A stretch of 64,000 nt of DNA, taken from contig CAZNWC010000001.1 in NCBI GenBank assembly GCA_964577055.1, positions 129 to 64,128 on the forward strand. Direction: 5' to 3'. The stretch is from an uncultured Chitinophaga sp. Lineage in GTDB: Bacteria > Bacteroidota > Bacteroidia > UBA7662. A program made the translations under genes and the position numbers. This document shows, one piece after another, positions 5,236-59,642 of this stretch (position 1 is its first letter; every line of letters starts with the position of its first letter). Below the pieces are notes generated by a model. It saw only the letters and a program-made list of their open reading frames with translations. It had not been told where the DNA came from and searched no databases.

Positions 5236-5296
5236 GCCTTCAGGCGGTTTTTCGCTGAGCTGCCACCGCCTTAGCCACATTCTCACGAATGTACTT

Positions 5297-5755: not shown

Positions 5756-5840
5756 ATCCTGTGATTAATAAGAACATGAAAATACAAAATCTACCTGAAT
5801 ATAGATTTAAAGGCCGCACGATTATGAATCTCCTTATGGC

Positions 5841-7168: not shown

Positions 7169-8144
7169 TGCCAGTGGTTTGACGAATCAAATAGCGGTTT
7201 CGGTCGGCCGAGCTGCGCGATACCAACTCTGCGAGAAAACCAGTCAGAAACAACTGTACCCCGATGATCACCAGCACCAACGCCAAGAAAAACAATGGCT
7301 GTGCGGTGATGTCACGATGCGGCAATCCTTGGGCTATTTTTGACAGCTTTTCGTAAATCACCACCAGGGTAATCACCCCACCAGTAAAAAACGACAAAGT
7401 GCCAATCAAACCGAAAAAGTGCATCGGCTTTTTGCCAAAGCGACCTACGAAATAGATCGACATCAAGTCAAGAAAGCCATTGATAAAGCGTTCCAAGCCA
7501 AATTTGGTGTGTCCGTATTTGCGCGCCCGGTGCTCCACTACCTGCTCTTCGATGCGCTTGAAGCCCGCCCATTTGGCAATCACCGGAATGTAGCGGTGCA
7601 TTTCGCCGTACACTTCAATGCTTTTTACCACTTCACGGCGGTACACCTTCAATCCACAATTAAAATCATGCAGGTTGTTGATGCCCGAAACTTTGCGAGT
7701 AGCCCAATTGAATAATTTGGTGGGAATGGTTTTGCTGAGGGGATCGTATCTTTTGCGCTTCCAGCCACTGATCAAATCGAGGCCTTCGTCGAACAAGCGC
7801 CGGTACATGGCAGGCAGTTCATCCGGACTGTCTTGCAAATCGGCATCCATGGTAAACACCGCCTTGCCTCGGGCAGCTTCGAAGCCTACATTGAGCGCAG
7901 CAGATTTTCCATAGTTCCGTTGAAAACGAATGCCCTTGACAGCGGGAAAACGCGTCGACAGTTGTTCGATCACTTGCCAGGAGTTGTCAGTGCTGCCATC
8001 ATCGATAAAAATCACCTCATAGCTAAAGCCTTCCTGCTCCATCACCCGCACCAACCATTCAGTAAGTTCGGGCAATGATTCTTCTTCGTTCAATTGTGGT
8101 ATGACTACCGAGATGTCAAGCTCCTGCATCCGTATTTTCTTCAA
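7161..8144 (-). CDS. Family 2 glycosyltransferase, polyprenol-phosphate sugar transferase type (DPM1/ArnC-like), with two C-terminal TM helices.
   Basis: VVIPQLNEEESL..IFIDDGSTDNS (GT2 DXD context). C-terminal hydrophobic helices. Confidence 0.85.
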   Translation of the reverse strand: MKKIRMQELDISVVIPQLNEEESLPELTEWLVRVMEQEGFSYEVIFIDDGSTDNSWQVIEQLSTRFPAVKGIRFQRNYGKSAALNVGFEAARGKAVFTMDADLQDSPDELPAMYRRLFDEGLDLISGWKRKRYDPLSKTIPTKLFNWATRKVSGINNLHDFNCGLKVYRREVVKSIEVYGEMHRYIPVIAKWAGFKRIEEQVVEHRARKYGHTKFGLERFINGFLDLMSIYFVGRFGKKPMHFFGLIGTLSFFTGGVITLVVIYEKLSKIAQGLPHRDITAQPLFFLALVLVIIGVQLFLTGFLAELVSRSSADRNRYLIRQTTGIA

Positions 8145-8676
8145 AAAGGTCAGGGGTGCGTTTTACAAAAGCGCCAACGATAAGGGCAACCACCGCACTA
8201 AAAATGCTGCTGATCAGCAATGCCGTAACCAATGATCTAAAGTCTTGTTTAAAGTCACGGGCTTCCATGCCTTCCAGCGCTTTCTCAATATCAGCATCGG
8301 ATGCACCAAACTTCTCCATCATGGAAGCCGTATTTTCGATGGTCAGCTCCTTGATAGTATCTGCCAATCCTGGGTCAATAACGTTGTACAGCACGGCATT
8401 GAAGGCCACCCCTACGATACTTGAAATTACGCCTATGCCTATACCTGTTACCACAGCTTCACCGTAAGGAAGCGCGTTGTTGTTCAGTTTGCGTTGCTCG
8501 CGGGTTCCCAATACCATGAAAACAACAACCAACACAAGAGAGATGGCTGAATTCCAAAAAGAAATGAGCAAGCTCACATCTACGATGTACAGCAAAAGGA
8601 GGTAAACTACGTTAACACCGCCCAAAAATAAGCCCCATTTAACAAGGGGCTTTTCAAAAAAGCCTTGTGATTCCAT
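8116..8676 (-). CDS. DUF4199-family membrane protein. The start is assigned to the MESQGFFEKP Met.
   Basis: Four TM helices and sequence typical of Bacteroidota DUF4199 (MESQGFFEKPLVKWGLFLGG..). Confidence 0.7.
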   Translation of the reverse strand: MESQGFFEKPLVKWGLFLGGVNVVYLLLLYIVDVSLLISFWNSAISLVLVVVFMVLGTREQRKLNNNALPYGEAVVTGIGIGVISSIVGVAFNAVLYNVIDPGLADTIKELTIENTASMMEKFGASDADIEKALEGMEARDFKQDFRSLVTALLISSIFSAVVALIVGAFVKRTPDLFEENTDAGA

Positions 8677-8683
8677 ATGTGTT

Positions 8684-9202
8684 TTAATTTCGATAATAAA
8701 TAGACACCATAAAGCCAATCAACAAACTCCACATCAATCGAAAGAAAAAGGTGGTGAGTGCGATATACGACTTACTGGCATTCAAGATACTTTCTTTTAT
8801 CTTTTCAAACTGACCAGCCGCATAATTTTTTTCAATGGTGGCCCTTCCTTGTTCCAGGGTTCGTAACTGATCGTCGATGTGTAATTGCCAAAGTGGATCA
8901 CTCAAATGAATCCAAACCCACAAAGCCAAGGAATAAAAAAGTGCACTTACCAGTCCTACAGCCAACGAAACCATAAAGCCATGGGTAACTGTCAAATTCC
9001 CTTGGTTGTAAATGTATTTATAGTTCCGCATGGCCAACACCATTACCACCACGGTAATTACCCCAATCAGTAAGCGAAACTGCCCCATGGGGTCATAGTG
9101 AAAATTGAAAAGCAGTAATGCAGCCATCAACGAAAATGACGCTGCATACATGCCATAGCGCAATCCCACTGTAAGCATGGCATACTTCAACAATTCTCTC
9201 AT
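8684..9202 (-). CDS. DUF4199-family membrane protein, tandem paralogue.
   Basis: Same topology and length class as the neighbouring gene. Tandem duplication. Confidence 0.6.
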   Translation of the reverse strand: MRELLKYAMLTVGLRYGMYAASFSLMAALLLFNFHYDPMGQFRLLIGVITVVVMVLAMRNYKYIYNQGNLTVTHGFMVSLAVGLVSALFYSLALWVWIHLSDPLWQLHIDDQLRTLEQGRATIEKNYAAGQFEKIKESILNASKSYIALTTFFFRLMWSLLIGFMVSIYYRN

Positions 9203-9243: not shown

Positions 9244-10038
9244 TTACGCCTGTGCCAGTAGAAAATTTGCAGAAATGCTGCCTTTTCCTTTGTAGAAAAG
9301 CAACATGGCCATTACCACTGGTAGATTACGGTTCACCTCTCCGCCAGCACACAGGGTAGCAAAAAGATTGATTTGGGCTTTTTCCGGGCTCTTGAAAAAA
9401 CAAAACAATGGGGTAAACACCTCGGGAATGGCCGTTTCAGGGGCTACCTTTTCTGCTGCCTGCACCATTTCTTCAAAGGTAAGTTCCAAATAATCGCGGT
9501 TAGCAATCACTTCTTCATATACTTCTAAGTCATCCTGAAAATCCATTTCTTCATCGGAAATAAACTGTTCCAAGAAGTCATCGAGATTGGCTTTGATATC
9601 GGAGTCAACAACTTCTTGCAAGTACATGAGCAAGGTGAGCATTTCGGTACCCCGTTCTGCTAACTTGTCCTCTAAGCGCTGCCATTCAGGCGAATCCATC
9701 CAATCGGTATTGCCGGCTTCCTCTTGTCGGCTCAACCAAGCCACATACAGCAGATCAAATAAGTACTCACGGTACATGGCCAGTGGAGGCGACTGCGCCC
9801 AAGCATCGAGGGCTTTCACTGCAGGCTCAAGTGCCTGCGGATTCGACATGATTTGGAGCCAATTTTCGAGGTAGCCATTGTATACCTCCCGCGTGTCCGA
9901 TGTTGCAGCCAAAAGCTTCTCCATTTGCTGTTGGGCCTCTTCAGGCTTGAGGCCCTTCCATCCAGCCTTTTGTGCTATTTCAGCCAAAAAGATACCGCTA
10001 AATAAGCCAACGGATGCGTCAATCAATCTATTATACAT
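9244..10038 (-). CDS. Hypothetical acidic, mostly helical protein.
   Basis: 264-aa ORF with no recognisable motif. 8-nt overlap with pyrC. Confidence 0.4.
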   Translation of the reverse strand: MYNRLIDASVGLFSGIFLAEIAQKAGWKGLKPEEAQQQMEKLLAATSDTREVYNGYLENWLQIMSNPQALEPAVKALDAWAQSPPLAMYREYLFDLLYVAWLSRQEEAGNTDWMDSPEWQRLEDKLAERGTEMLTLLMYLQEVVDSDIKANLDDFLEQFISDEEMDFQDDLEVYEEVIANRDYLELTFEEMVQAAEKVAPETAIPEVFTPLFCFFKSPEKAQINLFATLCAGGEVNRNLPVVMAMLLFYKGKGSISANFLLAQA

Positions 10039-11306
10039 GGGGAAGATACATTTGATGTTGGTTCATGACCAGTCGGATAGGACCGTAAAGCGACTTCCCG
10101 AGCATGGCATTGTTCACGCCTTTTGTTGCAAGATGCCTTGCTTGTACGGTATATGTTTCAGCTACATCGCACACAACCAGGTTGGCAACTGAACCGGCTG
10201 CAAACGGAGGATTCGGCAAACCCAACCACTTTGACGCAGCACTGCTCATGGCCAGTATCGCCTGTTCGAGTGCAGATGCTTGTTCGTGAAAAGCAGTTGC
10301 CACCACCGATAAGGCGGTCTCAAATGTTGCCATGCCAAATGCTGCCTGATCGAATTCCAAAAACTTATGTTCAGCATCCTCGGGCTGGTGGTCGCTGCAA
10401 ATGATATCAATCGTGCCATCCGCAATACCTGCTAAAAGTGCCTGTCGGTGTACTTCATCGCGCAAAGGCGGCCATACTTTATGGCAAGTATCAAATGCGG
10501 GCAAAACTTCATCGGTAAGTAGCAAATGATGCGCAGCAACGCCACAACTCACCGCTAAGCCTTGTTTTTTAGCATTTCGAATGCGTTCTACGCTCCCCAC
10601 CGTGCTGATTTTGCTGAAGTGCAGGCGACCTCCGCCATAAGCAAGCAACTCTAAGTCGCGGGCAATCGCCATTTCTTCAGCCATCGCAGGCATACCCTTT
10701 AGTCCCAAACGGGTGCTGATCAAGCCTTCGTGGACCAAAGCGCCTTTTCCCAAGTAATTATCTACAGGCAATACCATGACGGGTGCACCGGTATGTCGTG
10801 CGTATTGGAGGGCTAACAGCATGGTCCGGCTGTTTTCAATGCTGTTTTCAGCATTCGAAAAAGCCACAGCACCAGCCTCATGCATATCAACCATTTCGGC
10901 AATGTGTTTGCCCTGCAAATCTTCTGTAAGTGCTCCGGCAGCCAAGAGCTCCACGTGCGCAGGAGATTTACTCAACAAAGCTTGAATTTCTCCTTTGGTT
11001 TGCATCACCGGCTTGGTATCTGGCTGAACCAGCACACGGGTAAATCCACCTCTAAATGCAGCTTCAACACCTGTTTTCAGCGTTTCTTTGTATTCAAAAC
11101 CTGGTTCCCGCATAAATGCGTACACATCTGTCAAGCCAGGCATCAACCACAAATCTTTGCCTGTTATTTGCTCGGCCTCCGCATTGTGTAGCGAGGCACC
11201 TATTTCGGCTATCACGCCATCTTTGATCAACACATCGCAACGTTGGCCGTGGTAAGGCACATCCGGATGAACAACTTTGGCATTTTTAACGAGCAACAAC
11301 ATCATC
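10031..11306 (-). CDS. pyrC: Dihydroorotase (amidohydrolase superfamily). The start is assigned to MMLLLVKNAKVV.
   Basis: Cyclic amidohydrolase motifs and SDHQP (compare the SDHAP signature). Confidence 0.8.
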
Positions 11307-16968: not shown

Positions 16969-18618
16969 TTAAAATTTGAGCACTATCCCACCCAAAATAT
17001 TAAATCCGTAGGTTGGATAATTGTACCATCTAAAATAGCGCGCCGAAGTAACGTTGTTCAAATTCAAAAACACATTGAACTGATCATTGTACTGATATGA
17101 AGCTCCTAGATTTAGATCAAACACCCCATTCAGCCGCTCTGCTGTGCCTTGTTGACTGAGGTACGCTACCCCATTGTACACCACCGCTTCTGTGGTGAAT
17201 CTTAGTTTCGATTGCAGGGCATAACTCCCTCCTGCACGCATGGCAAAAGTGGGTTGCATAAAAGGCTCTGCCAAATTGGAGAGACCATAACTCCGCCAAT
17301 CCAAATTGGCATGCAAGGTATACTTATCACCGAATTTGCGATTGATTTCTGCCCTCAAGCTCGTTAAATTCGCCGCACTGTCATACACAGGCATCAATCT
17401 GCTAAAATCCGACGTATCGTTTAGAAAGAACATGGCCTGCCCCATGCGCTGGAAATTGAGCATTACATTGTAGGAGGTCAATTCGTCAATGCTTCCTTTC
17501 AAGCCCGCGTACATTTGGAACCGATTATTAAGATTCCGAATATCGGGACGAAGTCCAACGAAAGGATTGATGCGAATCATGTCTTGATAGCTGTTCCGTT
17601 CGGTATTGCCTGTGATACCACCATATGCTACCATATAAACATCGTTCAACAAATACGAGAAGTCCACATGTGGATATATCCTGAATTGTGATACACCACC
17701 TTGTGCTTCCATCGCCAGGTTTAGTCCGGCATTCACCGCAAACTTTAGTCCTTGCAACTGGTACCTCGGTTGAAAATAAACCAGCGTACGGTTTTGATTA
17801 AAGCCGGCAACATCGGCAAAATTGGTAAAGTCAATTGCGAAATCAAAAGTCAATCGGTTGGCATCATTGCGGATGAGCAATTCACCCTCTAAGCGCAAAT
17901 TGTTTTCGCGCTGTTCGAAACGATCGCTTAAACTGTAAAAACTAAAGTTTGCGCCGTATCCAACCTGATCGGCTTCAACCTCATGGCTTTTTAAGCCCAG
18001 ATTGCCCGAAATCCGATTAAAAACTTGCCGAATCGAATCTCTTGGTATTTCAACAGGTCTATTAGCACCATAAAAATGCCGCACTTGTCTATCGTAATCA
18101 AATGCCGAATACAAATACACCTTATTGAGATAGCGCTTGCCATGAACGCCCAATTGATTGTCGCTCATGGCGGCATGTTGAAACAAGGCTGTATCGATGG
18201 TCAAGTCACCAGATGACGAAAAATGCCGTGCTTTGATACCGTATTCAAACTTGGGATCGCGCTTGCTCATGTAGCGAATATCGGCGAGCGGGGTATTGTA
18301 ATTGCCACCTCCCAATCTGATATATCCACCCCCTAAATTGCTGGCCGGCTCGGGCAGGGCACGCAAAGGAGTAAGTGGAGCAAGCACCACTGAAGTTGGC
18401 GCCATCCGGTTAATTCCTGTGTAAATCAGCACTTTTTTATCGCTTTGCACAGTAGGAAGCTGAGGAACCGGATGAACTTTGAGCGCATCCGCCAAAACTG
18501 CTTCATAGGCGCGCACAACATTAATAGGATCGGTTGTAAAGCCTTCCCGCTGCGCCATGGCGTGCATGCTCATCGACAGCAGGCACCCGGTAAATCCAAC
18601 AACAATTCGCTTTTTCAT
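16969..18618 (-). CDS. Outer-membrane beta-barrel protein of unknown function.
   Basis: Signal peptide, beta-strand periodicity and a C-terminal ..GGIVLKF. The start overlaps the TPR gene stop by 4 nt (ATGA). Confidence 0.6.
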   Translation of the reverse strand: MKKRIVVGFTGCLLSMSMHAMAQREGFTTDPINVVRAYEAVLADALKVHPVPQLPTVQSDKKVLIYTGINRMAPTSVVLAPLTPLRALPEPASNLGGGYIRLGGGNYNTPLADIRYMSKRDPKFEYGIKARHFSSSGDLTIDTALFQHAAMSDNQLGVHGKRYLNKVYLYSAFDYDRQVRHFYGANRPVEIPRDSIRQVFNRISGNLGLKSHEVEADQVGYGANFSFYSLSDRFEQRENNLRLEGELLIRNDANRLTFDFAIDFTNFADVAGFNQNRTLVYFQPRYQLQGLKFAVNAGLNLAMEAQGGVSQFRIYPHVDFSYLLNDVYMVAYGGITGNTERNSYQDMIRINPFVGLRPDIRNLNNRFQMYAGLKGSIDELTSYNVMLNFQRMGQAMFFLNDTSDFSRLMPVYDSAANLTSLRAEINRKFGDKYTLHANLDWRSYGLSNLAEPFMQPTFAMRAGGSYALQSKLRFTTEAVVYNGVAYLSQQGTAERLNGVFDLNLGASYQYNDQFNVFLNLNNVTSARYFRWYNYPTYGFNILGGIVLKF

Positions 18619-21600
18619 TGATCACCTCCTTCGGGTTGTGGGTCATTTGTATTGGGCGCGTCACCTTCCCCTCCTTCGGGATTCATCGCACCGGGAGCTG
18701 TACTTCGGCCTTTTACTTGTCGGGCTTTTAATTCATCCAACCGTCGTTGCGCCTGCAAGGTGATGGCATCGGCAGCTCTGTTGTCGACAATGCTCTGCAA
18801 AGTTGCAATGGCCTGGAAATCTTCTTCCAAGGCAACATAGGTCTCAGCCAGCAGCAAAAAAGCTTTGCCAATCCAAGTATCGTAATAGGGTATTTTGTCA
18901 ACCAATTCGAAAATCGTCTGCTGCGCCAAGGCGTAGTCAGCACGCTTGTATTGTATTTCGGCCAAATAATATTTGGCAGCTGCGCCGTACTCGCCTTTGT
19001 TTTGCTCGTAGATGGCAGTGAAAGCCAAAAGTGCTTCCGATAATTGGCCGTCTTGCAGTTGAAGCTGCGCCAAAACCAGATCCGCTTCTAACTTGGCCTG
19101 CTCATCAGCATGTTCAAACTGTTTGATTTTCTCGGCATATGCCTTGGCCAAGGCCTTCTCCGACTGACCAAAATAAGCACGCATCAAGCCTTGAATGGCG
19201 TCCAAATAATTCCAACGCGAGTCGCTGTTTTGCTCGAGCAAACCAAAATACTTAACCGCCTGTGCAGTATCGCGCTTGGTTGAATAAAGTTTAGCCAAAC
19301 GGGCATATACCCGCTCAGAATACAGGCTGCGCGGCTGATCAGCCACAAATACCAAATCCTGCAGCATCAAGGTTGTATCGCCTTTGCGGCCGTAACAATC
19401 GGCCCGGAGAAACCTTGCGCTCACCACAAAATAGCCGTCGGGAAACCGATTGATGTATCTGGTTAACGAGGCAATGCCGTTATCACAGTCATTTTGGTTG
19501 TAAGCCAATTCCGCTGCCTGAAAAGTAATGGAATCTTCTTCAGAAAGGGTTACCGTGGCAGATGGCACAGTGGCCGCAAACGCCAGGTATTCATCTACTT
19601 TGTTCAGTTGGATGCATACATTTTTTACCCCAACCAAGGCATCACGAGCCTCTTGGGTCTTGGGATACTGGGCGATCACTGCCTTGTAAGCGTCTAAGGC
19701 TGCCTGATATTGTTCTTGGTTGTAATATACAAGTCCCTTCACCAAAATGGCTTTTTTGAGCAACAAGCTGTTCGGGCGTTTTTCTGATAAAGTCTCGATT
19801 TGTTTGAGTGCTTGTTGGTAATTGTCATCCAGAAAATAGGTGTTTGCCAATTCTAAAATGGCATTGTCGAGGTAGAGCGATCCTGGAAAACGCTTTTGAA
19901 ATTGCAGCAGCGCACTCACTTTTTTGTCCTTTTGCTTGAGCAATCCGAACAGAATGGCTTCTTGATAATTGGCGTAATCAGCACCTGTCAAATTTTTGGC
20001 CATCACTGCTTGGTAATGACGCAAAGCTTCTGTGTAGGTGCTGATGGCAAAATAGGCATCAGCCAACCGCAGCAACATATCGCCGTATGCGCTTTGGGCA
20101 AAAGCTTGGTTTTGCACCTTGGCAGGCTGCTTTTGCAAATCTTTTAGCCCAGCCTCAAATTGGGTAATGGCAAGCACATACTCCTGCCGTTTAAAATAGG
20201 CATACCCCAAACCATAATGGGCAGCAAACAAGGTATTTTCCGCTTCGAACCCATCCGTCACCGGATACGCTTGAATGAAGCGCTGATAATCGGCAATGGC
20301 ACCAGCCAAATCGCCCAAACGATACAAGGCCTCTGCTTTCCAATAAAGTGCTTTGGCCGTGATGTTTTTATCAATGCTTTGTGACAGCGATTTGTCGAAG
20401 TTCTTTACAGCTTCTTGGTAAACACCTTGGTTGAATACTTCTACGCCTCTGTAATAGGCCACTTTTTGGTACGACCGGTTGATGGTGAGGTTGCGTGCGG
20501 CAATGGCTTCAATTACCTCCACTGCTTCTTTGAAGTTTTTGGTCGACAACAACAGATTGCCCAGCAATTCTTTGGCTTCATCTCCAAACTTTGATGTTGG
20601 ATAATTGGCCAAAAAATCTTTCAGCCAAGTCAACGATTGAGGGTGAATATTGAGCTCGTAACCAAGCTTCGCATGATTAAAAGCAGCCATCTCTTGAATG
20701 TCTACATCCACATTTAAGCGTGATGCAGCATAAAAGCTACTCAGGGCCTGCTCTTTTAGACCCAATCGCAAATAACTGTCGCCCAACATGAAGGTAGCAC
20801 TCTGCCCCACACTATCGGTTCGAGAAGCCGCTTTGCTCAGGTATTTTACAGCTTCCTTGTAATCGCGCCCGACGTATGCGGCATAACCTAACTGATAATA
20901 ATCTTCACTGACCAGCTGTCCTCCTTGCTCCTGGTATCGCTTTAAATAGGGAATGGCTTTTACAAATTCCCCCTTTTTAAAATAGGCTTGGGCAATGAGA
21001 TAGTTGATGGCAGCAAGCTGCTTTACTTCTTTGTTCGCCGAAAGTGGCAAAGCATATGCTAAGAGCGCATCATAACGTCCGAGCTCAAATTGCAATTTCG
21101 TAATGTAATAAGGAATGATGCGTGCGTAATTCGCAGATTCACGTAACTTGTCGAAATAGGCCAATGCTGCCTCTCCTTCACCTTCTTGGTAGGCAATAAC
21201 CCCTAAATAATAGTTTGCGGGGTAGTGATATTCATTTTTTAAGCCACTGATTTGCTCAAAAGCTTGTTTGGCTTCTTTGAACATGTCGCGTGTAAAGTAG
21301 CTGTATCCGAGGTAGTACCGGGCCTTGGCACTTTGATCGAGTGCGAGTAAACTCGCATCCAGACTGCTTAGCACTGGAATTACCTCCTTGTACTTTTTGG
21401 AAATGAAATAGAATTGCCCTAAAAAGAACTTTACTTCATTTACTTCCAAAGCATCAGGATATTCCTCAATAAAGGCCAATAATTGGTGGTCAGCATCTTT
21501 CTGTCGCAATTGTGCTGTGCTGAGGGCCCGATAGTATTTCGCCCTGCGGTAAACATCCTGGTCTTCTTTCAGTTCTGATGGCGGAAATATGGCAGCCATC

Positions 21601-21767
21601 AAGCGCTCCGACTGTCGCTTTACTGCCACATAGCGGCTGTTTTGGTACAACGATTCTATCATGCGCATCTGCTCTTGATTTGCATCATAGATTTGGGTTC
21701 GTTGTGCTTTCACCAGAATGGAAAAACACAGCAGCAACACCAAAGCACCTATCCATTTTTTTTGCAT
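18615..21767 (-). CDS. Large tetratricopeptide-repeat protein (~1050 aa), secreted or lipoprotein. The start is assigned to MQKKWIGALVLLLC.
   Basis: More than 15 TPR-like repeats (..YYLGYSYF.., ..AEALYRLGDLAGAIADYQRFIQAYP..). Low-complexity C-terminal tail. Confidence 0.75.
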   Translation of the reverse strand: MQKKWIGALVLLLCFSILVKAQRTQIYDANQEQMRMIESLYQNSRYVAVKRQSERLMAAIFPPSELKEDQDVYRRAKYYRALSTAQLRQKDADHQLLAFIEEYPDALEVNEVKFFLGQFYFISKKYKEVIPVLSSLDASLLALDQSAKARYYLGYSYFTRDMFKEAKQAFEQISGLKNEYHYPANYYLGVIAYQEGEGEAALAYFDKLRESANYARIIPYYITKLQFELGRYDALLAYALPLSANKEVKQLAAINYLIAQAYFKKGEFVKAIPYLKRYQEQGGQLVSEDYYQLGYAAYVGRDYKEAVKYLSKAASRTDSVGQSATFMLGDSYLRLGLKEQALSSFYAASRLNVDVDIQEMAAFNHAKLGYELNIHPQSLTWLKDFLANYPTSKFGDEAKELLGNLLLSTKNFKEAVEVIEAIAARNLTINRSYQKVAYYRGVEVFNQGVYQEAVKNFDKSLSQSIDKNITAKALYWKAEALYRLGDLAGAIADYQRFIQAYPVTDGFEAENTLFAAHYGLGYAYFKRQEYVLAITQFEAGLKDLQKQPAKVQNQAFAQSAYGDMLLRLADAYFAISTYTEALRHYQAVMAKNLTGADYANYQEAILFGLLKQKDKKVSALLQFQKRFPGSLYLDNAILELANTYFLDDNYQQALKQIETLSEKRPNSLLLKKAILVKGLVYYNQEQYQAALDAYKAVIAQYPKTQEARDALVGVKNVCIQLNKVDEYLAFAATVPSATVTLSEEDSITFQAAELAYNQNDCDNGIASLTRYINRFPDGYFVVSARFLRADCYGRKGDTTLMLQDLVFVADQPRSLYSERVYARLAKLYSTKRDTAQAVKYFGLLEQNSDSRWNYLDAIQGLMRAYFGQSEKALAKAYAEKIKQFEHADEQAKLEADLVLAQLQLQDGQLSEALLAFTAIYEQNKGEYGAAAKYYLAEIQYKRADYALAQQTIFELVDKIPYYDTWIGKAFLLLAETYVALEEDFQAIATLQSIVDNRAADAITLQAQRRLDELKARQVKGRSTAPGAMNPEGGEGDAPNTNDPQPEGGDQ

Positions 21768-21947
21768 GCTTACTTTGTTTGAATGGCCTAATAACGCGTT
21801 TGCTCTACATAGAGTACACCTAAACAAAACTACTTAAGGCATTTCCCCAAATGCAGTGTATGCCCTTAAATAGTTTTGAACAGTGTGGATAAAATCGGTC
21901 AAAACACTGTGTGACTGTCCAAAAAAATCCCGCCGAAGCGGGATTGT

Positions 21948-52008: not shown

Positions 52009-52034
52009 TAAAAACCCCGCTTTCGCGGGGTTTT
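52009..52034 (-). terminator. tmRNA terminator (symmetric hairpin, potentially bidirectional).
   Basis: aaaa-ccccgc-tttc-gcgggg-tttt, directly 3' of the tmRNA end. Confidence 0.7.
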
Positions 52035-52035
52035 G

Positions 52036-52402
52036 TGGAGCTGCAGGGAGTCGAACCCTGGTCCAGACAAGCGGATCTGAAGCTTTCTACATGCTTAGCC
52101 TACCGTTGGTTGTCGGGAAACTGCAGGTCGGCGGCTTACCAACAATTTCCGTAGTTGCTGTTTGTTTCAACTTTGGCCCGCAACAAGCCGCTGTCTATTT
52201 TCTTATCGGTTATGCCTCCATATGCACCAACTAAGAAACCCATCGGTACGGAGACAACTCAAGCGTAATTCCTAGAATTACGCAGCGAGTGCGTAGTTGT
52301 TTTCGCCAGTTATGGCTCGAGCGTTCCGATTTACGAGGTCACGCACAAAACTCGGCATGCTTACCTGAGTCTCCATTCAAGCTGTCGATTCCGGTCAGCC
52401 CC
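52036..52402 (-). ncRNA. ssrA: tmRNA (SsrA), tag peptide GENNYALAA.
   Basis: 5' GGGGCUG and 3' CAGCUCCA form a tRNA-Ala-like acceptor stem with a G3:U pair. The T-arm is GGTTCGACTCCC. The internal reading frame is GGC GAA AAC AAC TAC GCA CTC GCT GCG TAA. Confidence 0.9.
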
Positions 52403-52935: not shown

Positions 52936-55900
52936 ATGCTGCGAACTTTATCTGCCATTTACTTAATCGTGCTAAGCCTTTCTAGCGTTGGTCAAAGTAC
53001 AATTACTTGGAATTTTACTGGTGCAACTTCTGGGGCACCTTCAAGCTCAGCGATTTCCAATTTGACAATCTCAAACATGTCGATTGGAAACTCATTAGGA
53101 ACGGTAAGTACGCCAATAAGTAGTACGAGTGCAAGTAGCGGATATACAGGTTCTTCAGGCACAAACAACATAGGCAACGCCGCACGAACTGGTGCGATTA
53201 GCACTGGTGCTAGTGGTAGTGCTTATGTGGAATTTACACTCACTCCTGCAACTGGATATACAGTGGAGCTGACAAACTTGAGTTTTGGAGTACGTTCAAC
53301 TAGTACAGCACCTCAAGCATGGAGCTTAAGGAGTTCTGATGATACTTATTCTACAGAAATCGCTGGAGGTACAAATTCAGCCAATAATTCATGGTCATTG
53401 CAAACGAGTAGCACTTTTTCTAAAACTAGCTCCGCTGGGACAGTTTTAACATTCAGAATTTATGGCTACAATGGTACTGGAAGTCCAAGTAATAATACAA
53501 TCAACTGGAGATTGGATGACATTAACCTAACCGTAAATGTCACTAGTACAGTTAATCCTTCTATTTCTGTGACTCCCGCATCTACCAACTTCGGCAACAG
53601 CGCCATTAGCACCCCAACAGCCTCTACTACCTACAGCATTTCAGGCACCAACCTCACAGGCGCTCCAGGCAACATCACCATCACGCCTCCGAGCAGTGAC
53701 TTCGAAGTAAGTACAGACAATTCGGCATTTAGTGGATCTATCAATATCGCTTACAGCGCAGCTACACTTAACTCAACCAACTTCTATGTGCGGTTTAACC
53801 CACAAAGTGGCGGTGCGAAAAGTGGCAATTTAGGCTTTAGCGGTGGGGGCGTGACTTCTCCTCCTACCATCAGCGTGAGTGGCACGGGTGTTACCAATTT
53901 TTACACCAAATCAGCTACTTCAACAGACTTGCAAAACACTACCAGTTGGACCACGGATGCAGCGGGCGGTGCGGGTACCGAACCCACAGATTTTACTTCG
54001 AATGCGCAGATCTTCAACATTGCCAACAATTCCACCACCACCATTTCGGGCAACTGGACCGTTTCGGGCACCGGTTCTAAAATTGTGGTGAGCAGCGGCG
54101 ATTTCACCATTCCTTCCGGCAACACCGTTACGGGAACAATCGATGTGAGCGGTGGTGCTGAATTAACCATTGAAAATACCACCCAGCCTACCTTGGGAAC
54201 CTTGGCGGCTACTAGCACTATACAATACAACAACGTAGCGCTCACTTTACCGTCAAGCACTACCTATGGCAACCTAACCCTCAGTGGCACAGGCACCAAA
54301 ACCTTCGCAGGTAATACCACCACCGTGGCTGGCAACTTGGTTATCGACAATACAACCATCGACGCACCTGGAGGCTCGCCCTTTGCAACCATTTTATTGG
54401 CAGGAAATTTAACCTATCAAGGCACGGTAACCAATCCAATCGATGCAAACAGCATTACCCTACAAACCAATGGTACTGCTGCTGGCACCCAAACCATCAC
54501 CGCCAATGGCAACACAGTTCGCTACTTCCGCATTCAAACCACTACTGCTAACACCCTCTTGATGAGTACCACTGGCGGCAGTTCGCACATTCTCGCAGGA
54601 AATGCCTCCAGCGGTGGCATCACTTTGCTCGATGGCTCCGTATTGAATCTGAACGGCAATGACCTTTCCTTTTTTGCCACAGGTGGCGCTAGTTTAATCC
54701 TCAATACTACTGGCAGTATCAGTGGAGGCGCACAATCTGACCTTACTTTTGCCCGCGGCGGCACTTCCTCCTTGGGCACGTTACGCATGACCAGCGGGGC
54801 TAACACGGTACGCAGCCTGACAGTCAACCACAGTGGTAGCAGCAATACCACCCTCACCTTGGGAAATGCCATCAACGTAACCGAAACTGTTACTTTAACT
54901 GCTGGCATCTTGGCGTCAGGTGGTCATTTGACCCTCAAATCAACCGCAGCAGGCGCAACCGCCCGCATCGAAGGCGGCACCAACGCCAGCATCACCGGCA
55001 ACGTTACTGTAGAACGTTTCCTGCCGTGGCAATCGGCCAACAACAACGGTTTCCGTTTTGTGGGTCACCCTTTGCGCAGCAACCCGGTAATCAATACGGT
55101 TACCAATTTGCCAACTGCCAACAATACCCTCATTGGTTACAACGAAGCCCAAAACGCCTATGCCGGTATCACCAACCGTGCGGGCAATTGGCCACAAGCA
55201 ACCGCCTATGGCGTTTGGACCGATGCAGCCAATACCCTCAGCTTTACGGGCGAACTGCAATTGGATGAGGTAGGTCCCATCAGCCTCAGCAACAGCAGCC
55301 AGCGCTGGCATTATTTGGCCAACCCCTTTCCGTCGGTACTCGATTGGAATGCAGTAAGCCGTACAGACATGGCCAATGCCGTTTACATTTGGGAGAAGGA
55401 CAATGCTGCTGAAGGCAGCGGTGCCTGGGGGTCATTCATCGATGGTGTATCTTCGAACAATGGCGGTCGTTATTTGGCGCCAGGTCAGGGCTTCATGGTA
55501 CGCACCAATGCAAGCGGTAGCCCTTCCATCACTTTCCCTGCTGCTGCACGTAGTACCGCCAGCAATCCTTCCTATTACCGCCAGCAAAATGTGATTGGTG
55601 ACGTATTCAGGGTACGAATTCAAAAGCCAGCCAATCAAACAGGCATGGAAACCGTCATTCGTTTCCGCAACCAAGCCACTTCCGGATTTGATGCTGCATA
55701 CGATGCCGAATTTTTAACTGACTGGACGCCAGCATCACCCGATTTATATACCACTGATGCTCAAGGCAACAAATACAGTATCCAAGCATTGCCTGAACTG
55801 GGTAACCAAATAGTTTCAGTGCCTGTTTCGCTCGAAGCCTTTGGAGCCGGCGCCTTTACTTTCAGTTTCGACGCATCGGGAATGACCACCCCTGCAGACA

Positions 55901-56262
55901 TACGTCTGCAAGATCTGCGTGATGGCAGCTATGCCCAAGTTTTACCCGGACAATCCATCACCATCACGTCTTCAAATCAAGACATTGCCGGTCGATTTGT
56001 GCTGCACTTCAATGCATCTTTAAGTACATCAACGCCTTCAATAGAAGCCAGCAGCTTGAGTTTGTACACGTACGAAGGAGTGCTCTACATCAACGGCGCC
56101 GCCAGCGGCGAGTTGCGCATCACCGACCTCACAGGTCGTACCGTGTACCACCAAACCCAACAAAACTTTGGAGAAGCCATTCGCCCTGGACTAGCCAAAG
56201 GTGCCTATCTGGTGCAAGTCAATACTTCCGAAGGCAGCAAATTTGTCAAAGTTATTTTCTAA
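52936..56262 (+). CDS. Large secreted Thr/Ser/Gly/Asn-rich repeat protein (~1108 aa) with a type IX secretion C-terminal sorting domain. Putative adhesin or cell-surface protein.
   Basis: Signal peptide MLRTLSAIYLIVLSLSSVGQ. Long beta-strand-repeat-like T/S/G/N-rich body. C-terminal ~80-aa T9SS CTD ending ..GAYLVQVNTSEGSKFVKVIF. Confidence 0.75.
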   Translation: MLRTLSAIYLIVLSLSSVGQSTITWNFTGATSGAPSSSAISNLTISNMSIGNSLGTVSTPISSTSASSGYTGSSGTNNIGNAARTGAISTGASGSAYVEFTLTPATGYTVELTNLSFGVRSTSTAPQAWSLRSSDDTYSTEIAGGTNSANNSWSLQTSSTFSKTSSAGTVLTFRIYGYNGTGSPSNNTINWRLDDINLTVNVTSTVNPSISVTPASTNFGNSAISTPTASTTYSISGTNLTGAPGNITITPPSSDFEVSTDNSAFSGSINIAYSAATLNSTNFYVRFNPQSGGAKSGNLGFSGGGVTSPPTISVSGTGVTNFYTKSATSTDLQNTTSWTTDAAGGAGTEPTDFTSNAQIFNIANNSTTTISGNWTVSGTGSKIVVSSGDFTIPSGNTVTGTIDVSGGAELTIENTTQPTLGTLAATSTIQYNNVALTLPSSTTYGNLTLSGTGTKTFAGNTTTVAGNLVIDNTTIDAPGGSPFATILLAGNLTYQGTVTNPIDANSITLQTNGTAAGTQTITANGNTVRYFRIQTTTANTLLMSTTGGSSHILAGNASSGGITLLDGSVLNLNGNDLSFFATGGASLILNTTGSISGGAQSDLTFARGGTSSLGTLRMTSGANTVRSLTVNHSGSSNTTLTLGNAINVTETVTLTAGILASGGHLTLKSTAAGATARIEGGTNASITGNVTVERFLPWQSANNNGFRFVGHPLRSNPVINTVTNLPTANNTLIGYNEAQNAYAGITNRAGNWPQATAYGVWTDAANTLSFTGELQLDEVGPISLSNSSQRWHYLANPFPSVLDWNAVSRTDMANAVYIWEKDNAAEGSGAWGSFIDGVSSNNGGRYLAPGQGFMVRTNASGSPSITFPAAARSTASNPSYYRQQNVIGDVFRVRIQKPANQTGMETVIRFRNQATSGFDAAYDAEFLTDWTPASPDLYTTDAQGNKYSIQALPELGNQIVSVPVSLEAFGAGAFTFSFDASGMTTPADIRLQDLRDGSYAQVLPGQSITITSSNQDIAGRFVLHFNASLSTSTPSIEASSLSLYTYEGVLYINGAASGELRITDLTGRTVYHQTQQNFGEAIRPGLAKGAYLVQVNTSEGSKFVKVIF

Positions 56263-56281
56263 GCAATCAAAGAAACCACAT

Positions 56282-56485
56282 ATGAGCAAGTTCATTAACA
56301 TCTGTTTGGCTACCGCAGCATTGGTTGTTTTTAGCCAGTTGGCCTTTGCCCAGCCACCCCCTCCTGCCAATCCAGCCGCCGTGCCCATCGACGGAGGTTT
56401 GAGTATCCTTTTAGCAGCTGGTGCCGGTTTGGGTGCCAAAAAAGCTTGGGACCTCCGCAAGCAACAAGCTGAAAAAAACGATTGA
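56282..56485 (+). CDS. Small secreted protein (67 aa) with a C-terminal sorting-signal-like segment.
   Basis: Signal peptide MSKFINICLATAALVVFSQLAFA. Pro-rich spacer QPPPPANPAA. VPIDGG, hydrophobic helix LSILLAAGAGLGA, then basic KKAWDLRKQQ. Confidence 0.5.
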   Translation: MSKFINICLATAALVVFSQLAFAQPPPPANPAAVPIDGGLSILLAAGAGLGAKKAWDLRKQQAEKND

Positions 56486-56504: not shown

Positions 56505-56532
56505 TAAAGCCTCCTTCGGGAGGCTTTTTTAT
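56505..56532 (+). terminator. Rho-independent terminator.
   Basis: aaagcctcc-ttcg-ggaggcttttttat. Confidence 0.7.
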
Positions 56533-56670: not shown

Positions 56671-56843
56671 ACAGCGCGAAGCGCAACCACAGGCCATTAG
56701 GCCACCCACAGCACGAAGTGCATTCACAGGCCGTCAGACCACCCACAGCGCGAAGCGCAACCACAGGCCGTTAGGCCGCCCACAGCACGCAGTGCATCAA
56801 CAGCACGCAGTGCGCCCACAGCACACAGTGCGCCCACAGGTCA
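56671..56843. repeat. Degenerate tandem repeats in a convergent intergenic region.
   Basis: A ~36-nt unit acagcgcgaagcgcaaccacaggccRttaggccRccc occurs x2 with a 75-nt period. A ~17-nt sub-repeat cacagcRcRMagtgcRYY occurs x5-6. Confidence 0.8.
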
Positions 56844-59642
56844 TCAACCCTTCCGAAAGTGCCGGATATTGTAAGTGAAGGTCATCATCCAAAACTGCTG
56901 CAACACGGTGGTCTGCACGTCTTCTACATAAGTTTCGGTCACGTTACGGGCAATGCTGTTGTTTTGGTTCAGCAAGTCAAAAACCGACAATTTGAGCTCT
57001 GCCCGGCGATCCTTGCCAAAACGATAACCCATACCAGCATTCCACAAAGTAAATGACTGATTAAAGCCATCTTCCAAACCTGCAAAGGCATTGTACAATA
57101 CATCGCTGCTGAAAACCAAGGCGGGAATGGGCAACCAATTGATGCGGAAATTCGCATTGTGGATGTAATAATCGTTGTTGAGCTGCGGCTGAATGCTGTT
57201 GAATACCGTATTGTAGTTCAGAGCATATCCGAGAGTAAAGTCCAACTCCTTGCTGATGTTCGATCCGATGGTCAAACCGGTGTTGATGTTGTGGGTCAGC
57301 GCTTCGTTGGCCACTCCGTTGATCAGGCTGGGACTGTTGTTGATGGTGTAGCCTGCATTCAAGTTGATATTGCTTTTTAGCACTTTGAGCGGGAAGCCAT
57401 ATGAAGCAAAAGTCCGGAAATTATATGCCCCATGCACATTCACGGGCTGAATGAGTTGCGCGCCCCGTACCAACGCAATGCCGCCGGGCAAAATCGTATC
57501 TACACGTGCAATAAAAGTGCTGTTTGCAATTTGATTGTTCACCAAGTTCAAACTGGCAAACACGAAAAAAGAAGTTCCCTTTTTCGCATTTGCGTCCCTG
57601 AACCTGCCACCCAAACGATGCGTATACGATTGGCCCAAATTCGGATTCCCGGCACGCAACTGCAACGTATTGCTGTTGTCAACCACGTTTTGCAATTGGC
57701 TCAAAGTTGGCAATTCGATGCTGCTGCGGTAAAACAAACGCATATTGGCCGTTTTACTAAAATTGTAACGAAACATGGCCGTGGGCAACCAATTGTAAAA
57801 GTCGCGAGACGCCTCTAGATCACGCGGAAACAACTGTTGGCTGAACAGGTTCGATACCTGGTAGTTGGTGCCCAGCATCCACTCATATTTTTCGGTGTGG
57901 TAGCGGAAGCGCGCACCCCACGTATTTGAGCGAATGTTGTTGTCGAATTCATTGGAAATGGCGCTGTCGACCAGGTTATAGGCCCCGGTAACCGGATCAA
58001 AATTATTGGCCCTTTGCTCCGAAACCCCAAAGGTAAACTGGGGTGCATAGCTGATTTCAAGCATCGACCGTTCGGTCAACGCTTCGGTAAATACCAGATC
58101 GGCACGGAAACGCTGGTTAAAATTGCGGCTGCTGATCTCCTGATCCACCAACAAGGTGTCGGCTAAGGCGGGTCCATCGAGGTTAAGGGCATATAAATTG
58201 CGTAAGCCATTTGTTCGGCCGGCATCCCCGTTCACATTCACCGAAATGGTGCGCCCCTTTTTGTCAAAGCGGTGACGAAACTGCAGGTCTCCATTGAGGT
58301 TCCAACCATCTGCCACATTTTGCTGCTGATTTTCGGTACTGTTAATAGGTAAGGCCAATCGGTTGGTGATACCGGCAAAAGTATTCTCTTGATTCCGGTT
58401 TTGCCAGCTGATGCGTGGTGTAAAAATGAGACTGTTACTGCTGTCAATGTTGTATTCCAAGCGCATATTGAGCCGATGGTTTACGCCCAAATTGGTCGAA
58501 AGACTGCTTTCGTTGTACAGCTGACCGATGCCATCGTTTAAAAAAAACTGACGGCTCACAAGGCTCTGCTGTTCGTTGTCGCTTCGGTTAAAAAAGTAAC
58601 TGGCACTCATCTTGCCTTTGGCGCCCCAATTGTCGCTGTAATTCACACCAAAAGCTTGGGTAGCACTGATGCCTCCTTGTTGACCGGTCAGAAAGTTGGC
58701 TGCATCACTGCTACCACCCACGCCACCCGGACGACCTCCTCCCGGACGGCCACCACCTGGCCGAGCAGCTGCCGGGCTGAGCCCACTCAAATCCTGGCTG
58801 CTAAAATTCTGCTGGTTGATGTTGTTGGCCATGCCCAACAGGGTGATGCGTTTTTTACCCGCAAAAAAGTTCACCGTTCCACCCGTCATGTAGCGGTTGT
58901 CGGTGCCGTAACCCGCGTAAACTTTGCCAAAACGGCTGTTATCGAGTCCGGTTTTGGTAATGATATTGAGCGTTTTTTCGGTATTGCCATCGTTGAAACC
59001 CGTGAATTGTGCCTGATCGCTCAGCCGGTCGATGAGTTGGATTCTATCTACCACCTCGGCTGGTAAATTCCGCAGGGCCATGGTGGCATCGTCGCCAAAA
59101 AACTCCTGTCCGTCTAACAACACCCGGCGCACTTGTTCGCCTTGTGCTTGAACCTGACCATTTTCAACGGTGATACCCGGCATTTTCCGCACCAGCTGCT
59201 CGGCATCGGCATCGGGATTCACTTTAAAGGCATCGGCCCGAATTTCGGTGGTATCGCCGCGCTGTTCTACGCGCTGCTCCACGCCTTCAATGCGTACTTC
59301 GCCCAAGGTTTTTACATCTTCTTTGAGGCTGTAAGGTGGCAGTTGCAGCAGGTTTTGTTCACGGGGAACACGAATTCGCTCTACCCGGGTTTCATACCCC
59401 ACAAAACTCATTCTCAACACATAAGGCCCTGGACGGTCAAGTTTGAGTTCAAATTGTCCTTGTACATTGGTGATGGTTCCGGTTACTTTACTGCTATCGA
59501 AGCCCGAAACGGCCACCACGTTTACGCCCGGAAGCGGACCTGCACCACCGGCATCGCGTACGCTGCCTTTGATTAGGTACTGGGCCACAACAACCTCACT
59601 TAAAAACAACAAGAAAATAAAGATGGCAAAACTTCGACGCAT
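56844..59642 (-). CDS. Outer-membrane beta-barrel protein with a CarbPepD_reg-like N-terminus (TonB-dependent-receptor-like family).
   Basis: Signal peptide. YLIKGSVRDAGGAGPLPGVNVVAV.. Gly/Pro-rich insert (RPGGGRPGGGRPGG). Barrel periodicity. 932 aa. Confidence 0.7.
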   Translation of the reverse strand: MRRSFAIFIFLLFLSEVVVAQYLIKGSVRDAGGAGPLPGVNVVAVSGFDSSKVTGTITNVQGQFELKLDRPGPYVLRMSFVGYETRVERIRVPREQNLLQLPPYSLKEDVKTLGEVRIEGVEQRVEQRGDTTEIRADAFKVNPDADAEQLVRKMPGITVENGQVQAQGEQVRRVLLDGQEFFGDDATMALRNLPAEVVDRIQLIDRLSDQAQFTGFNDGNTEKTLNIITKTGLDNSRFGKVYAGYGTDNRYMTGGTVNFFAGKKRITLLGMANNINQQNFSSQDLSGLSPAAARPGGGRPGGGRPGGVGGSSDAANFLTGQQGGISATQAFGVNYSDNWGAKGKMSASYFFNRSDNEQQSLVSRQFFLNDGIGQLYNESSLSTNLGVNHRLNMRLEYNIDSSNSLIFTPRISWQNRNQENTFAGITNRLALPINSTENQQQNVADGWNLNGDLQFRHRFDKKGRTISVNVNGDAGRTNGLRNLYALNLDGPALADTLLVDQEISSRNFNQRFRADLVFTEALTERSMLEISYAPQFTFGVSEQRANNFDPVTGAYNLVDSAISNEFDNNIRSNTWGARFRYHTEKYEWMLGTNYQVSNLFSQQLFPRDLEASRDFYNWLPTAMFRYNFSKTANMRLFYRSSIELPTLSQLQNVVDNSNTLQLRAGNPNLGQSYTHRLGGRFRDANAKKGTSFFVFASLNLVNNQIANSTFIARVDTILPGGIALVRGAQLIQPVNVHGAYNFRTFASYGFPLKVLKSNINLNAGYTINNSPSLINGVANEALTHNINTGLTIGSNISKELDFTLGYALNYNTVFNSIQPQLNNDYYIHNANFRINWLPIPALVFSSDVLYNAFAGLEDGFNQSFTLWNAGMGYRFGKDRRAELKLSVFDLLNQNNSIARNVTETYVEDVQTTVLQQFWMMTFTYNIRHFRKG

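Follow-up and report, generated by a model that had tools for sequence, protein, structure and literature searches.

A cargo-less PID-CTERM mini-protein encoded directly after a RemA/RemZ-family adhesin as a candidate substrate of exosortase X

What role might be played by an exported protein that consists of little more than a signal peptide, a short spacer and a sorting signal, and what connects it to the large adhesin whose gene lies directly upstream? These questions are raised by a locus on a 64,000 nt stretch of DNA (the window) from an uncultured Chitinophaga sp. (assembly GCA_964577055.1, contig CAZNWC010000001.1). On its forward strand, an open reading frame (ORF) for a type IX secretion system (T9SS) cargo protein of 1108 amino acids (aa), here called the giant (52936-56262), is followed after 19 nt by an ORF of 67 aa, here called the mini-protein (56282-56485). 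An initial annotation had described this arrangement and the layout of the smaller product, and both the ORF coordinates and the sequence agree with that description. The mini-protein was found to belong to the PID-CTERM protein-sorting family, relatives of which are encoded beside exosortase X (XrtX) in other genomes and are coupled gene by gene to T9SS cargo related to RemA and RemZ. It is considered reasonably probable that the mini-protein is an XrtX substrate that is functionally coupled to the adjacent adhesin.

The mini-protein (MSKFINICLATAALVVFSQLAFAQPPPPANPAAVPIDGGLSILLAAGAGLGAKKAWDLRKQQAEKND) can be divided into four parts, all encoded on the forward strand. By inspection, the signal peptide (56282-56350; MSKFINICLATAALVVFSQLAFA, cleaved before Gln) is made up of MSK, a hydrophobic core and LAFA followed by Gln, and this A-x-A site with its Gln is kept in the family alignment. 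A proline-rich spacer, QPPPPANPAA (56351-56380), is recognizable in both sequence and alignment and forms the only "passenger" of the protein. Next is the PID-CTERM sorting signal (56381-56443), consisting of VPIDGG, the hydrophobic segment LSILLAAGAGLGA and KK, after which come 13 more polar residues, as in many members of the family. This basic and polar tail (AWDLRKQQAEKND, 56444-56482) is predicted from the sequence to be cytoplasmic, and its KKAWDxRK part is semi-conserved.

The tail had been likened in the initial annotation to the signals of exosortases or of rhombosortases, and only the former comparison held. The model for the PID-CTERM protein-sorting domain, NF046080, matched residues 34-54 of the mini-protein on model positions 1-21 of 25, reaching 37.9 bits where the cut-off is 26 (E = 1.1e-9). 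A Gly-Gly pair does precede the hydrophobic segment, as would suit a GlyGly-CTERM signal, but in a scan of NCBIfam neither the GlyGly-CTERM nor the PEP-CTERM models matched the mini-protein at E <= 1, and the enzyme encoded next to its relatives is an exosortase and not a rhomboid. A search of 5.8 billion proteins yielded 131 relatives, and all 120 of those listed are 56-115 aa in length and pre-annotated with Pfam PF28310 (PID_CTERM). In their alignment V34, P35, I36, D37, G38, G39, L40 and K54 are invariant, and the tail follows an almost invariant consensus, VPIDGGL(S/G)xLLAAGAGLGxKK. The residues P, D, G, G and L do not vary in a non-redundant set of 90 genomic copies, yet every synonymous codon for them occurs; over these copies, 42,728 codon differences are synonymous and 17,573 are not. 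This codon pattern at invariant residues shows that the mini-protein gene is translated and under strong purifying selection. The mini-protein is a true member of the PID-CTERM family. The small ORF, the conservation of which had been left to be checked, is therefore no chance ORF, such an origin being excluded by its conservation and codon pattern; the probability that it is one, or that its tail is a rhombosortase signal, is judged to be vanishingly small.

Loci encoding relatives were collected by a scan of one genome per species of the GTDB, which returned 162 mini-protein relatives; 79 loci from approximately 55 genomes were kept, mostly from metagenome-assembled genomes (MAGs) of Chitinophagales, together with Segetibacter aerophilus NBRC 106135. 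Across 88 sequences (87 loci and the window), all 100 PIDGG tails identified were on ORFs of no more than 194 aa measured stop to stop, and these 100 include second and third copies that had not been selected by the search. A further 60 distinct mini-proteins in loci anchored on XrtX were likewise never on large proteins. The tail is thus confined to mini-proteins in every copy examined (approximately 160). Gene fission, by which a giant once ending in a PID-CTERM tail would have been split in two, was rejected, as no large PID-CTERM protein was identified and each mini-protein carries a conserved signal peptide of its own.

Between signal peptide and motif, the spacer of these proteins is approximately 7-25 residues long and differs among lineages, examples being QPPPPxNPAA (as here), QPVFDDDVNDV (in Chitinophagaceae), QNCNPN, acidic spacers and Gly/Pro-rich spacers ending in CWPPPC. 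Short and freely varying, it looks like a linker. A subfamily was observed in which a conserved C-W-P-P-P-C lies directly before (I/V)P(I/V)DGG, upstream of an exosortase match (L117, L124, L129, L134-L139, L142, L167, L169 and others); judging from its sequence, this motif could form a small disulphide loop beside the presumed cleavage site.

A link to a specific enzyme was found when the genes neighbouring the relatives were clustered. The giants were the only widely recurrent neighbours in loci anchored on mini-proteins, and a cluster of four members was formed by a protein of approximately 180 aa encoded directly after the mini-protein in other genomes. This protein matches the Pfam family Exosortase_EpsH (superfamily PF09721, TIGR04178). 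The NCBIfam model that fits it best is NF046081, exosortase X (196 bits for locus L061, 170 for L083, 143 for L086 and 110 for L051), with XrtF, TIGR04128, as the second-best model (up to 103 bits). The predicted catalytic Cys and Arg are invariant among the XrtX sequences. The gene after XrtX weakly matches NF046082, the XrtX-associated membrane protein; in 58 of 70 loci, a product of approximately 160 aa is encoded after XrtX. A search for an XrtF-like exosortase, as the initial annotation had advised, thus led to XrtX adjoining mini-protein genes in other genomes. From their consecutive accessions (NF046080, NF046081, NF046082) it can be taken that NCBI curators already treat PID-CTERM and XrtX as one system.

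With XrtX as the anchor, a mini-protein gene was found no more than 700 nt upstream in 53 of the 69 metagenomic loci that had enough upstream sequence. Among the remaining 16, at least seven have the permuted order XrtX, giant, mini-protein, with a RemA-like giant after XrtX (L126-L128, L164, L165, L170, L171), the mini-protein itself being seen in L126 and L164, whereas L127 and L128 repeat L126 and the sequences of L165, L170 and L171 stop before the expected mini-protein. In L168, which has no PID mini-protein upstream, a RemA-like giant is on the opposite strand. The idea that an analogous mini-protein with another motif takes its place was rejected, since none was identified upstream in the 16 exosortase loci without a PID mini-protein.

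Named examples include Hymenobacter sediminicola (CP060202, approximately 595.5-602 kb), with a T9SS giant, a 69 aa mini-protein, XrtX and a 152 aa protein in this order, and the MAG JAXLTL01, with a giant, a 59 aa mini-protein, XrtX and a 166 aa protein. In Aurantibacillus circumpalustris (CP121197) a 76 aa mini-protein, XrtX and a 158 aa protein are adjoined by a Wzc-like gene, with no adjacent giant. Neighbours of XrtX included Wzc/Wzz-like genes in 13 of 70 loci and Bac_transf priming-transferase genes in 12 of 70. Polysaccharide genes near XrtX were observed at L089 7299-9674 (-), L090 11098-12132 (-) and L061 11336-12247, their types being Wzc/Wzz-like co-polymerase, Bac_transf priming transferase and PgfS/ArnC-like glycosyltransferase of family 2 (GT2). 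A further observation concerns a subfamily without a giant (L013 ~4711-5480, L020 ~5491-6305, L022 ~9992-10716), in which the gene for the mini-protein (…PNPPGPQIVPIDGGLSLLIAACAGVGAKK…) comes after one for a fatty-acid hydroxylase, with a divergent XrtX-like exosortase encoded directly behind it.

The partner of the mini-protein at the locus under study, the giant, was identified as a T9SS type A cargo protein. Its ORF extends from an ATG at 52936 to a TAA at 56260-56262, its product ending in ...GSKFVKVIF. An alternative start, TTG at 52885, would result in 1125 aa; the ATG is preferred because it gives a normal signal peptide, a predicted Sec signal peptide read from the sequence as MLRTLSAIYLIVLSLSSVG cleaved before Gln (52936-52992). 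Gln at position +1 is typical of signal peptidase I substrates in Bacteroidota. The presence of a T9SS C-terminal domain, as first proposed, was borne out both by a family model and by fold. TIGR04183, the cut-off of which is 23, scored 28.5 bits for the whole protein and 36.9 bits for its 110 C-terminal aa (Pfam PF18962 scored 20.4, under its cut-off of 27), and the type A sorting domain was placed at aa 1051-1107 (56086-56259). The AlphaFold model of the giant (pLDDT 82) is all-beta and multi-domain, and comparison of its C-terminal domain using Foldseek returned two T9SS substrate domains bound in the SprA translocon, namely that of RemA (8gl6_D; TM-score 0.73, root-mean-square deviation (rmsd) 2.4 Å, probability 1.00) and that of NucA (8glk_D; TM-score 0.70, probability 1.00), with rmsd values of 2.4-2.6 Å for both. 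Outside this domain no close solved fold was found by structure search. No lectin family was identified in the giant in scans of Pfam and NCBIfam, the sole other match being a weak one to choice-of-anchor D.

Such giants regularly accompany the mini-proteins. Among the 74 non-redundant mini-proteins with more than 700 nt of sequence upstream, 64 are preceded by a large ORF on the same strand ending within 400 nt, the gap usually being 5-100 nt, and of 48 distinct upstream ORFs, 43 have a C-terminus that matches TIGR04183. In these loci, a T9SS C-terminal domain was present in 95 ORFs, 59 of which were followed by a mini-protein; ORFs with this domain make up approximately 5% of the other ORFs. 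Immediately before the C-terminal domain, the giants share a conserved module of approximately 410 aa, which in the giant of the window covers aa ~618-1029 (54787-56022) and is all-beta in the AlphaFold model; Pfam has no match to this region in the giant or its homologues. A hidden Markov model (HMM) of the module (giant aa 620-1030, 411 positions) matched 62 of 73 large ORFs directly upstream of mini-proteins over nearly its full length, the matches ending ~80-107, ~128-192 or ~250-265 aa before the C-terminus, just ahead of the C-terminal domain. By comparison, it matched 9 of 181 control ORFs, most of these nine being giants whose mini-protein the criteria had missed. Over aa 627-1108, the giant shares 24-49% identity with more than 25 other giants associated with mini-proteins.

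In Flavobacterium johnsoniae, RemA takes part in gliding as a surface adhesin secreted by the T9SS, and RemZ is homologous to it (PMC10994853, PMC8444969). For the last 509 aa of the giant, a profile built from an alignment with the giant of the window as its first row matched RemZ (8gl8_D, residues 463-1112; E = 5.7e-45) and RemA (8gl6_D, residues 835-1435; E = 1.5e-44). Motifs common to the giants and RemA/RemZ are GN(I/V)T..R, NL(I/V)GNP(F/Y)PS, Y(I/F)W, YIA(A/P)GQ(G/A)FF and DRF..(H/R)(F/Y). A single-sequence phmmer search from the giant does not reach RemA, and the relationship found by profile is therefore remote. On the strength of the profile matches, the giants are placed by sequence as remote relatives of RemA and RemZ with variable passengers. 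The mini-proteins are thus coupled gene by gene to T9SS type A cargo carrying one RemA/RemZ-homologous module.

The pairing extends to duplication. Paralogous tails, which the initial annotation had proposed to look for, are numerous. No fewer than seven loci of the MAG JBAOIC01 (L012, L015, L021, L037, L039, L049, L069) are paralogous and have in common a block of approximately 2 kb with 72-96% identity, which starts approximately 1.75 kb upstream of the mini-protein within the 3' end of the giant and ends at the stop codon of the mini-protein. Several of the giants of JBAOIC01 are frameshifted, which may be due to nanopore assembly errors. Other examples of genomes rich in mini-proteins are DDFK01/UBA1930 and S. 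aerophilus NBRC 106135. Locus L091, which is syntenic with the window (having the same outer-membrane protein, CcmE and CcmF downstream), has the order giant, mini-protein, giant, mini-protein, and L007 has the order giant, mini-protein, mini-protein, giant, mini-protein. The 3' end of the adhesin gene and the mini-protein gene therefore duplicate jointly, as one block.

It could be argued that the two proteins act independently, their adjacency being a matter of envelope co-regulation or of hitch-hiking on a duplicating cassette. Mini-proteins without a giant (L013, L020, L022, L089) and the many T9SS cargo genes without a mini-protein would fit with this. However, the adjacency is kept across many genomic contexts and several orders of Bacteroidota, is tied to a single adhesin module (in the 62 of 73 upstream ORFs against 9 of 181 controls given above) and survives the permuted gene order around XrtX, and independence is regarded as very unlikely.

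In contrast to its conserved 3' end, the 5' part of the giant gene appears to be mosaic. The first 600 nt (aa 1-200, 52936-53535) have a G+C content at third codon positions (GC3) of 0.28-0.32, against 0.43-0.63 (mostly ~0.5-0.6) in the rest of the gene, with the step at approximately aa 200, and 0.47-0.69 in other genes of the window. S+T+N content is unchanged across aa 1-400, and since GC3 drops while it stays constant, the AT-richness lies at synonymous sites. Compared with the giant of the syntenic locus L001 (L001 6439-9972), the C-terminal 489 aa are 55% identical (from local blastp; this match was missed by another pairwise comparison), the N-terminal 320 aa are 28% identical and the middle is unrelated, this middle region having relatives other than L001. 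The AT-richer 5' ~700 nt that had been pointed out in the initial annotation were thus recovered, and its hint of a mosaic N-terminus gained support from the GC3 step, the pattern of identity to L001 and the paralogues sharing only the 3' 1.75 kb and the mini-protein. The low-GC3 segment was probably acquired by recombination, as judged from base composition and identity.

How might such a protein act together with the adhesin? Of the roles first suggested for it, namely membrane-anchored partner, processing substrate or decoy, that of a processing substrate partnering the adjacent adhesin fits best. The mini-protein would be exported by Sec and lose its signal peptide, sitting in the inner membrane with its N-terminus out and its C-terminus in, held there by the short helix and basic tail. 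XrtX, presumably encoded elsewhere in the genome, would then cleave at the PID motif, with the helix and basic tail being discarded, and might move the remaining peptide of approximately 14 residues, Gln/pyroGlu-PPPPANPAAVPID, onto a lipid or polysaccharide precursor of the envelope. This transfer is suggested because of the analogy with rhombosortase and archaeosortase; a general exosortase model has been discussed (PMC7468200), and rhombosortase is known to join VesB to a glycerophosphoethanolamine-containing moiety before export through a type II secretion system (T2SS) (PMC6219818). The processed peptide would be a consumed, stoichiometric co-factor, used roughly 1:1 with the adhesin, because each adhesin gene has its own nearly identical mini-protein; a catalyst or regulator is disfavoured because one copy per adhesin gene would not be needed. 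Most likely, the peptide would serve the surface attachment or retention of the RemA-like adhesin after T9SS export. This would agree with the C-terminal domain of RemA, which is known to give both anchoring and release, the anchor being unknown (PMC12618676), and with the phenotype of xrtF mutants (PMC10936215) and the ligation of peptides by PorU (PMC4560394) described below.

The nature of this attachment could be covalent. In a two-sortase relay, the peptide would be linked by XrtX, through its C-terminus, to either a lipid or a polysaccharide/lipopolysaccharide (LPS) precursor that reaches the cell surface. Once the C-terminal domain of the adhesin is removed, PorU would then join the new C-terminus of the adhesin to the free N-terminus of the peptide, so that the adhesin would end in QPPPPANPAAVPID or part of it. 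The mini-protein would then be a covalent surface anchor replacing the amino-sugar linker of the anionic LPS (A-LPS) of Porphyromonas. The one-to-one pairing and co-duplication of adhesin and mini-protein suggest a co-substrate that is consumed, and the spacer, free in sequence yet always short, is linker-like. PorU has been shown to ligate peptides or amino acids of the medium to the C-termini of cargo when A-LPS is missing (PMC4560394), and the natural linker provides an amino-acid amine (PMC7468200). The Wzc/Wzz-like and Bac_transf genes near XrtX (13 and 12 of 70 loci, as given above) are also in keeping with such a relay, as are F. johnsoniae xrtF and fjoh_1449 deletion mutants, which share the phenotype of porU/porZ mutants, the substrates of XrtF being unknown (PMC10936215). 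The same species requires xrtF and the gene next to it for colonising surfaces and for forming biofilms and zorbs, exactly as it does porU and porZ (PMC10936215). Set against the relay are the probable cyclisation of the predicted mature N-terminal Gln to pyroglutamate, which would remove the nucleophilic amine, the spacer of the mini-protein of the window, which is without Lys, and the lack of a known route for the peptide to the outer leaflet of the outer membrane. N-terminal Gln is normally cyclised to pyroglutamate in Bacteroidota. As formulated, the relay is rated as unlikely.

A wider reading was also considered, in which the PID-CTERM mini-proteins in general would be ribosomally made, single-use surface anchors for RemA-type adhesins. 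XrtX would fix the C-terminus of the ~14-residue peptide to a lipid or polysaccharide carrier, and either PorU or a non-covalent contact via the conserved module would fix the adhesin to the peptide. This reading is put forward tentatively and is held to be doubtful.

Alternatively, the mini-protein may not be cleaved and could be a stable single-pass micro-protein of the inner membrane, regulating or assisting a partner whenever the adhesin is made, with its helix packed on XrtX, on the protein associated with it or on a component of the T9SS or gliding motor. Conservation is unusually high in the helix, GGLSxLLAAGxGxG, which has small-xxx-small motifs, and in the tail, KK(A)W/Y-D-x-RK, and the predicted periplasmic part is very short, both of which would suit such a protein. 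On the other hand, the mini-protein scores over the curated cut-off of a sorting-signal model, it adjoins an exosortase with intact Cys and Arg in most XrtX loci, and a regulator would need no near-identical copy per adhesin gene. A stable, uncleaved mini-protein is accordingly thought improbable.

Several findings weigh against the mini-protein being an XrtX substrate coupled to the adhesin. No exosortase was identified in the 64 kb window by tblastn with XrtX proteins or by a six-frame HMM search, in which the best E-value was 0.25 and positive controls worked, in line with the initial remark that no sortase-like gene is in the window. Genomes with giant and mini-protein only may still encode XrtX, although among the 120 XrtX matches listed none overlapped with their mini-protein-bearing contigs, and a 3.4 Mb contig syntenic with the window was absent among the matches listed in a metagenome scan with the XrtX alignment. 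The pairing is also incomplete. A RemA-like giant was present in 14 of 31 XrtX loci of at least 8 kb, the remainder having none; some XrtX loci have a cargo protein without the module or no giant; 36 T9SS C-terminal domain ORFs in the loci have no mini-protein; and the giant-less mini-proteins of L013, L020, L022 and L089 fall under the same heading. Furthermore, conservation of the hydrophobic segment extends to nearly every residue, beyond the need of a disposable signal, a degree that would suit a stable transmembrane partner as well. Gln is the usual residue at the predicted mature N-terminus and is probably cyclised, and the processed peptide would need to exit from the inner membrane to the surface without a known route.

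Two ORFs of the window (172 and 200 aa; 8116-9202, -) were considered as XrtX and its associated protein but rejected, as they match no family and do not match the XrtX HMM. Their candidacy was due to their size and order, which recall XrtX, the associated protein and GT2 in L061; within the region 6044-9202 (-), they lie ahead of an ArnC/PgfS-like polyprenyl-phosphate glycosyltransferase and a glycosyltransferase of family 4.

Comparison to described systems revealed both likenesses and differences. Within the PID-CTERM/XrtX system as curated (NF046080, NF046081, NF046082, PF28310), the mini-protein scores over the cut-off and its relatives adjoin XrtX and the associated protein, but the window has a satellite copy, for which no XrtX was identified in the 64 kb. 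With PEP-CTERM/exosortase (XrtA/EpsH) it shares a tripartite signal (a motif starting with VP, a hydrophobic helix and a basic cluster) and the enzyme superfamily. PEP-CTERM/exosortase systems often neighbour polysaccharide genes, as XrtX loci do. PEP-CTERM signals are on real passenger proteins, with many per genome and one enzyme serving all, whereas the passenger of the mini-proteins is only 7-25 residues long and the PEP-CTERM model does not match the mini-protein. XrtF of F. johnsoniae (Fjoh_1448/1449) is the nearest named exosortase family to XrtX and also has an adjacent small membrane protein, but XrtX scored as a separate, sister family; no PID-type mini-protein was found for XrtF, in a search that did not cover the genome of F. 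johnsoniae.

As regards the adhesin, the C-terminal region of approximately 600 aa (module and C-terminal domain) is homologous to RemA/RemZ at the profile level, but the N-terminal passenger differs and is mosaic, and no lectin domain was found in it, whereas RemA has one. Type B cargo of the T9SS with an SprF/PorP-like gene is similar in that the cargo is followed by a dedicated small partner deciding its fate after secretion (PMC12618676); here, however, the partner is a 60-110 aa mini-protein with an exosortase signal and not an outer-membrane beta-barrel, and the cargo is of type A. For VesB of Vibrio cholerae, the tail is cleaved in the inner membrane by rhombosortase and the new C-terminus modified, followed by surface display via the T2SS (PMC6219818). 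The route proposed for the mini-protein would likewise combine cleavage of a sorting signal in the inner membrane with an outer-membrane secretion system, but VesB is one polypeptide, whereas here one gene product carries the T9SS domain and another the sorting tail, and the enzyme is of another family. In Porphyromonas gingivalis, type A cargo loses its C-terminal domain to PorU and is amide-linked to an amine of a surface glycolipid, A-LPS (PMC4560394, PMC7468200). The giant is also of type A, but the possible anchor here would be a ribosomal peptide.

The mini-protein falls in a curated PID-CTERM family, XrtX is curated as well, and the giant is a T9SS type A cargo protein and a remote relative of RemA and RemZ. 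No paper on PID-CTERM, XrtX or exosortase X was identified in the literature searched, nor were three observations made here found described there (the free text of curators lying outside this scope): that XrtX substrates are essentially cargo-less, that there is a gene-by-gene pairing of the mini-proteins with T9SS adhesins of the RemA family, which a specific module defines, and that the 3' end of the adhesin gene and the mini-protein gene form a duplicating cassette. The analysis also defines a conserved adhesin module lacking a Pfam family, and points to adhesin genes that evolve by passenger-domain swaps ahead of a fixed cassette of module, C-terminal domain and mini-protein. For the XrtF/XrtX branch of Bacteroidota exosortases, the literature searched names neither a substrate nor a function, yet in F. 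johnsoniae both the colonisation of surfaces and the formation of biofilms are lost in xrtF mutants, as in T9SS attachment mutants (PMC10936215). A second question that the locus touches is the way in which the cell surface holds and releases RemA and other type A T9SS adhesins outside Porphyromonas (PMC12618676). The locus links these two systems. If the mini-proteins were indeed anchors, this would be a first function for exosortase X and its sister XrtF, and would explain the surface retention of type A adhesins in those Bacteroidota without the A-LPS linker of Porphyromonas.

At the transcript level, the giant and the mini-protein genes are probably expressed together. The intergenic spacer of 19 nt (56263-56281) was found by terminator search to have no terminator, while an intrinsic terminator (56506-56532, +), supported by sequence and folding and consisting of a 9 bp stem (AAAGCCUCC/GGAGGCUUU), a UUCG loop and a U-run, begins 20 nt past the stop codon of the mini-protein (-20.4 kcal/mol, z = -3.3). 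As a hairpin is present only after the mini-protein, and the gap before it is short and free of one, a single transcription unit of two genes is likely.

Further features were observed in the window. A gene for transfer-messenger RNA (tmRNA; 52033-52402, -; tag GENNYALAA; Rfam RF00023, 147 bits) is situated approximately 530 nt upstream of the giant; it was rejected as an integration site for an island, as its 3' end points away from the giant. A 152 aa ORF (5297-5755, -) has a weak match to a transposase of the repetitive extragenic palindromic (REP)-associated tyrosine type (NF047646, 33 bits against a cut-off of 80). The only sign of T9SS machinery inside the window was a weak PorW/SprE-like tetratricopeptide repeat match (78.7 bits against a cut-off of 250), to a protein of 1070 aa with YbgF-like repeats (18615-21827, -). 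Finally, tandem repeats at 56671-56839, some with a 37 nt period (3.6 copies) and others with an 18 nt period, which may be REP-like, span the region from the terminator of the mini-protein to the convergent gene for a 932 aa outer-membrane protein (56844-59642, -).

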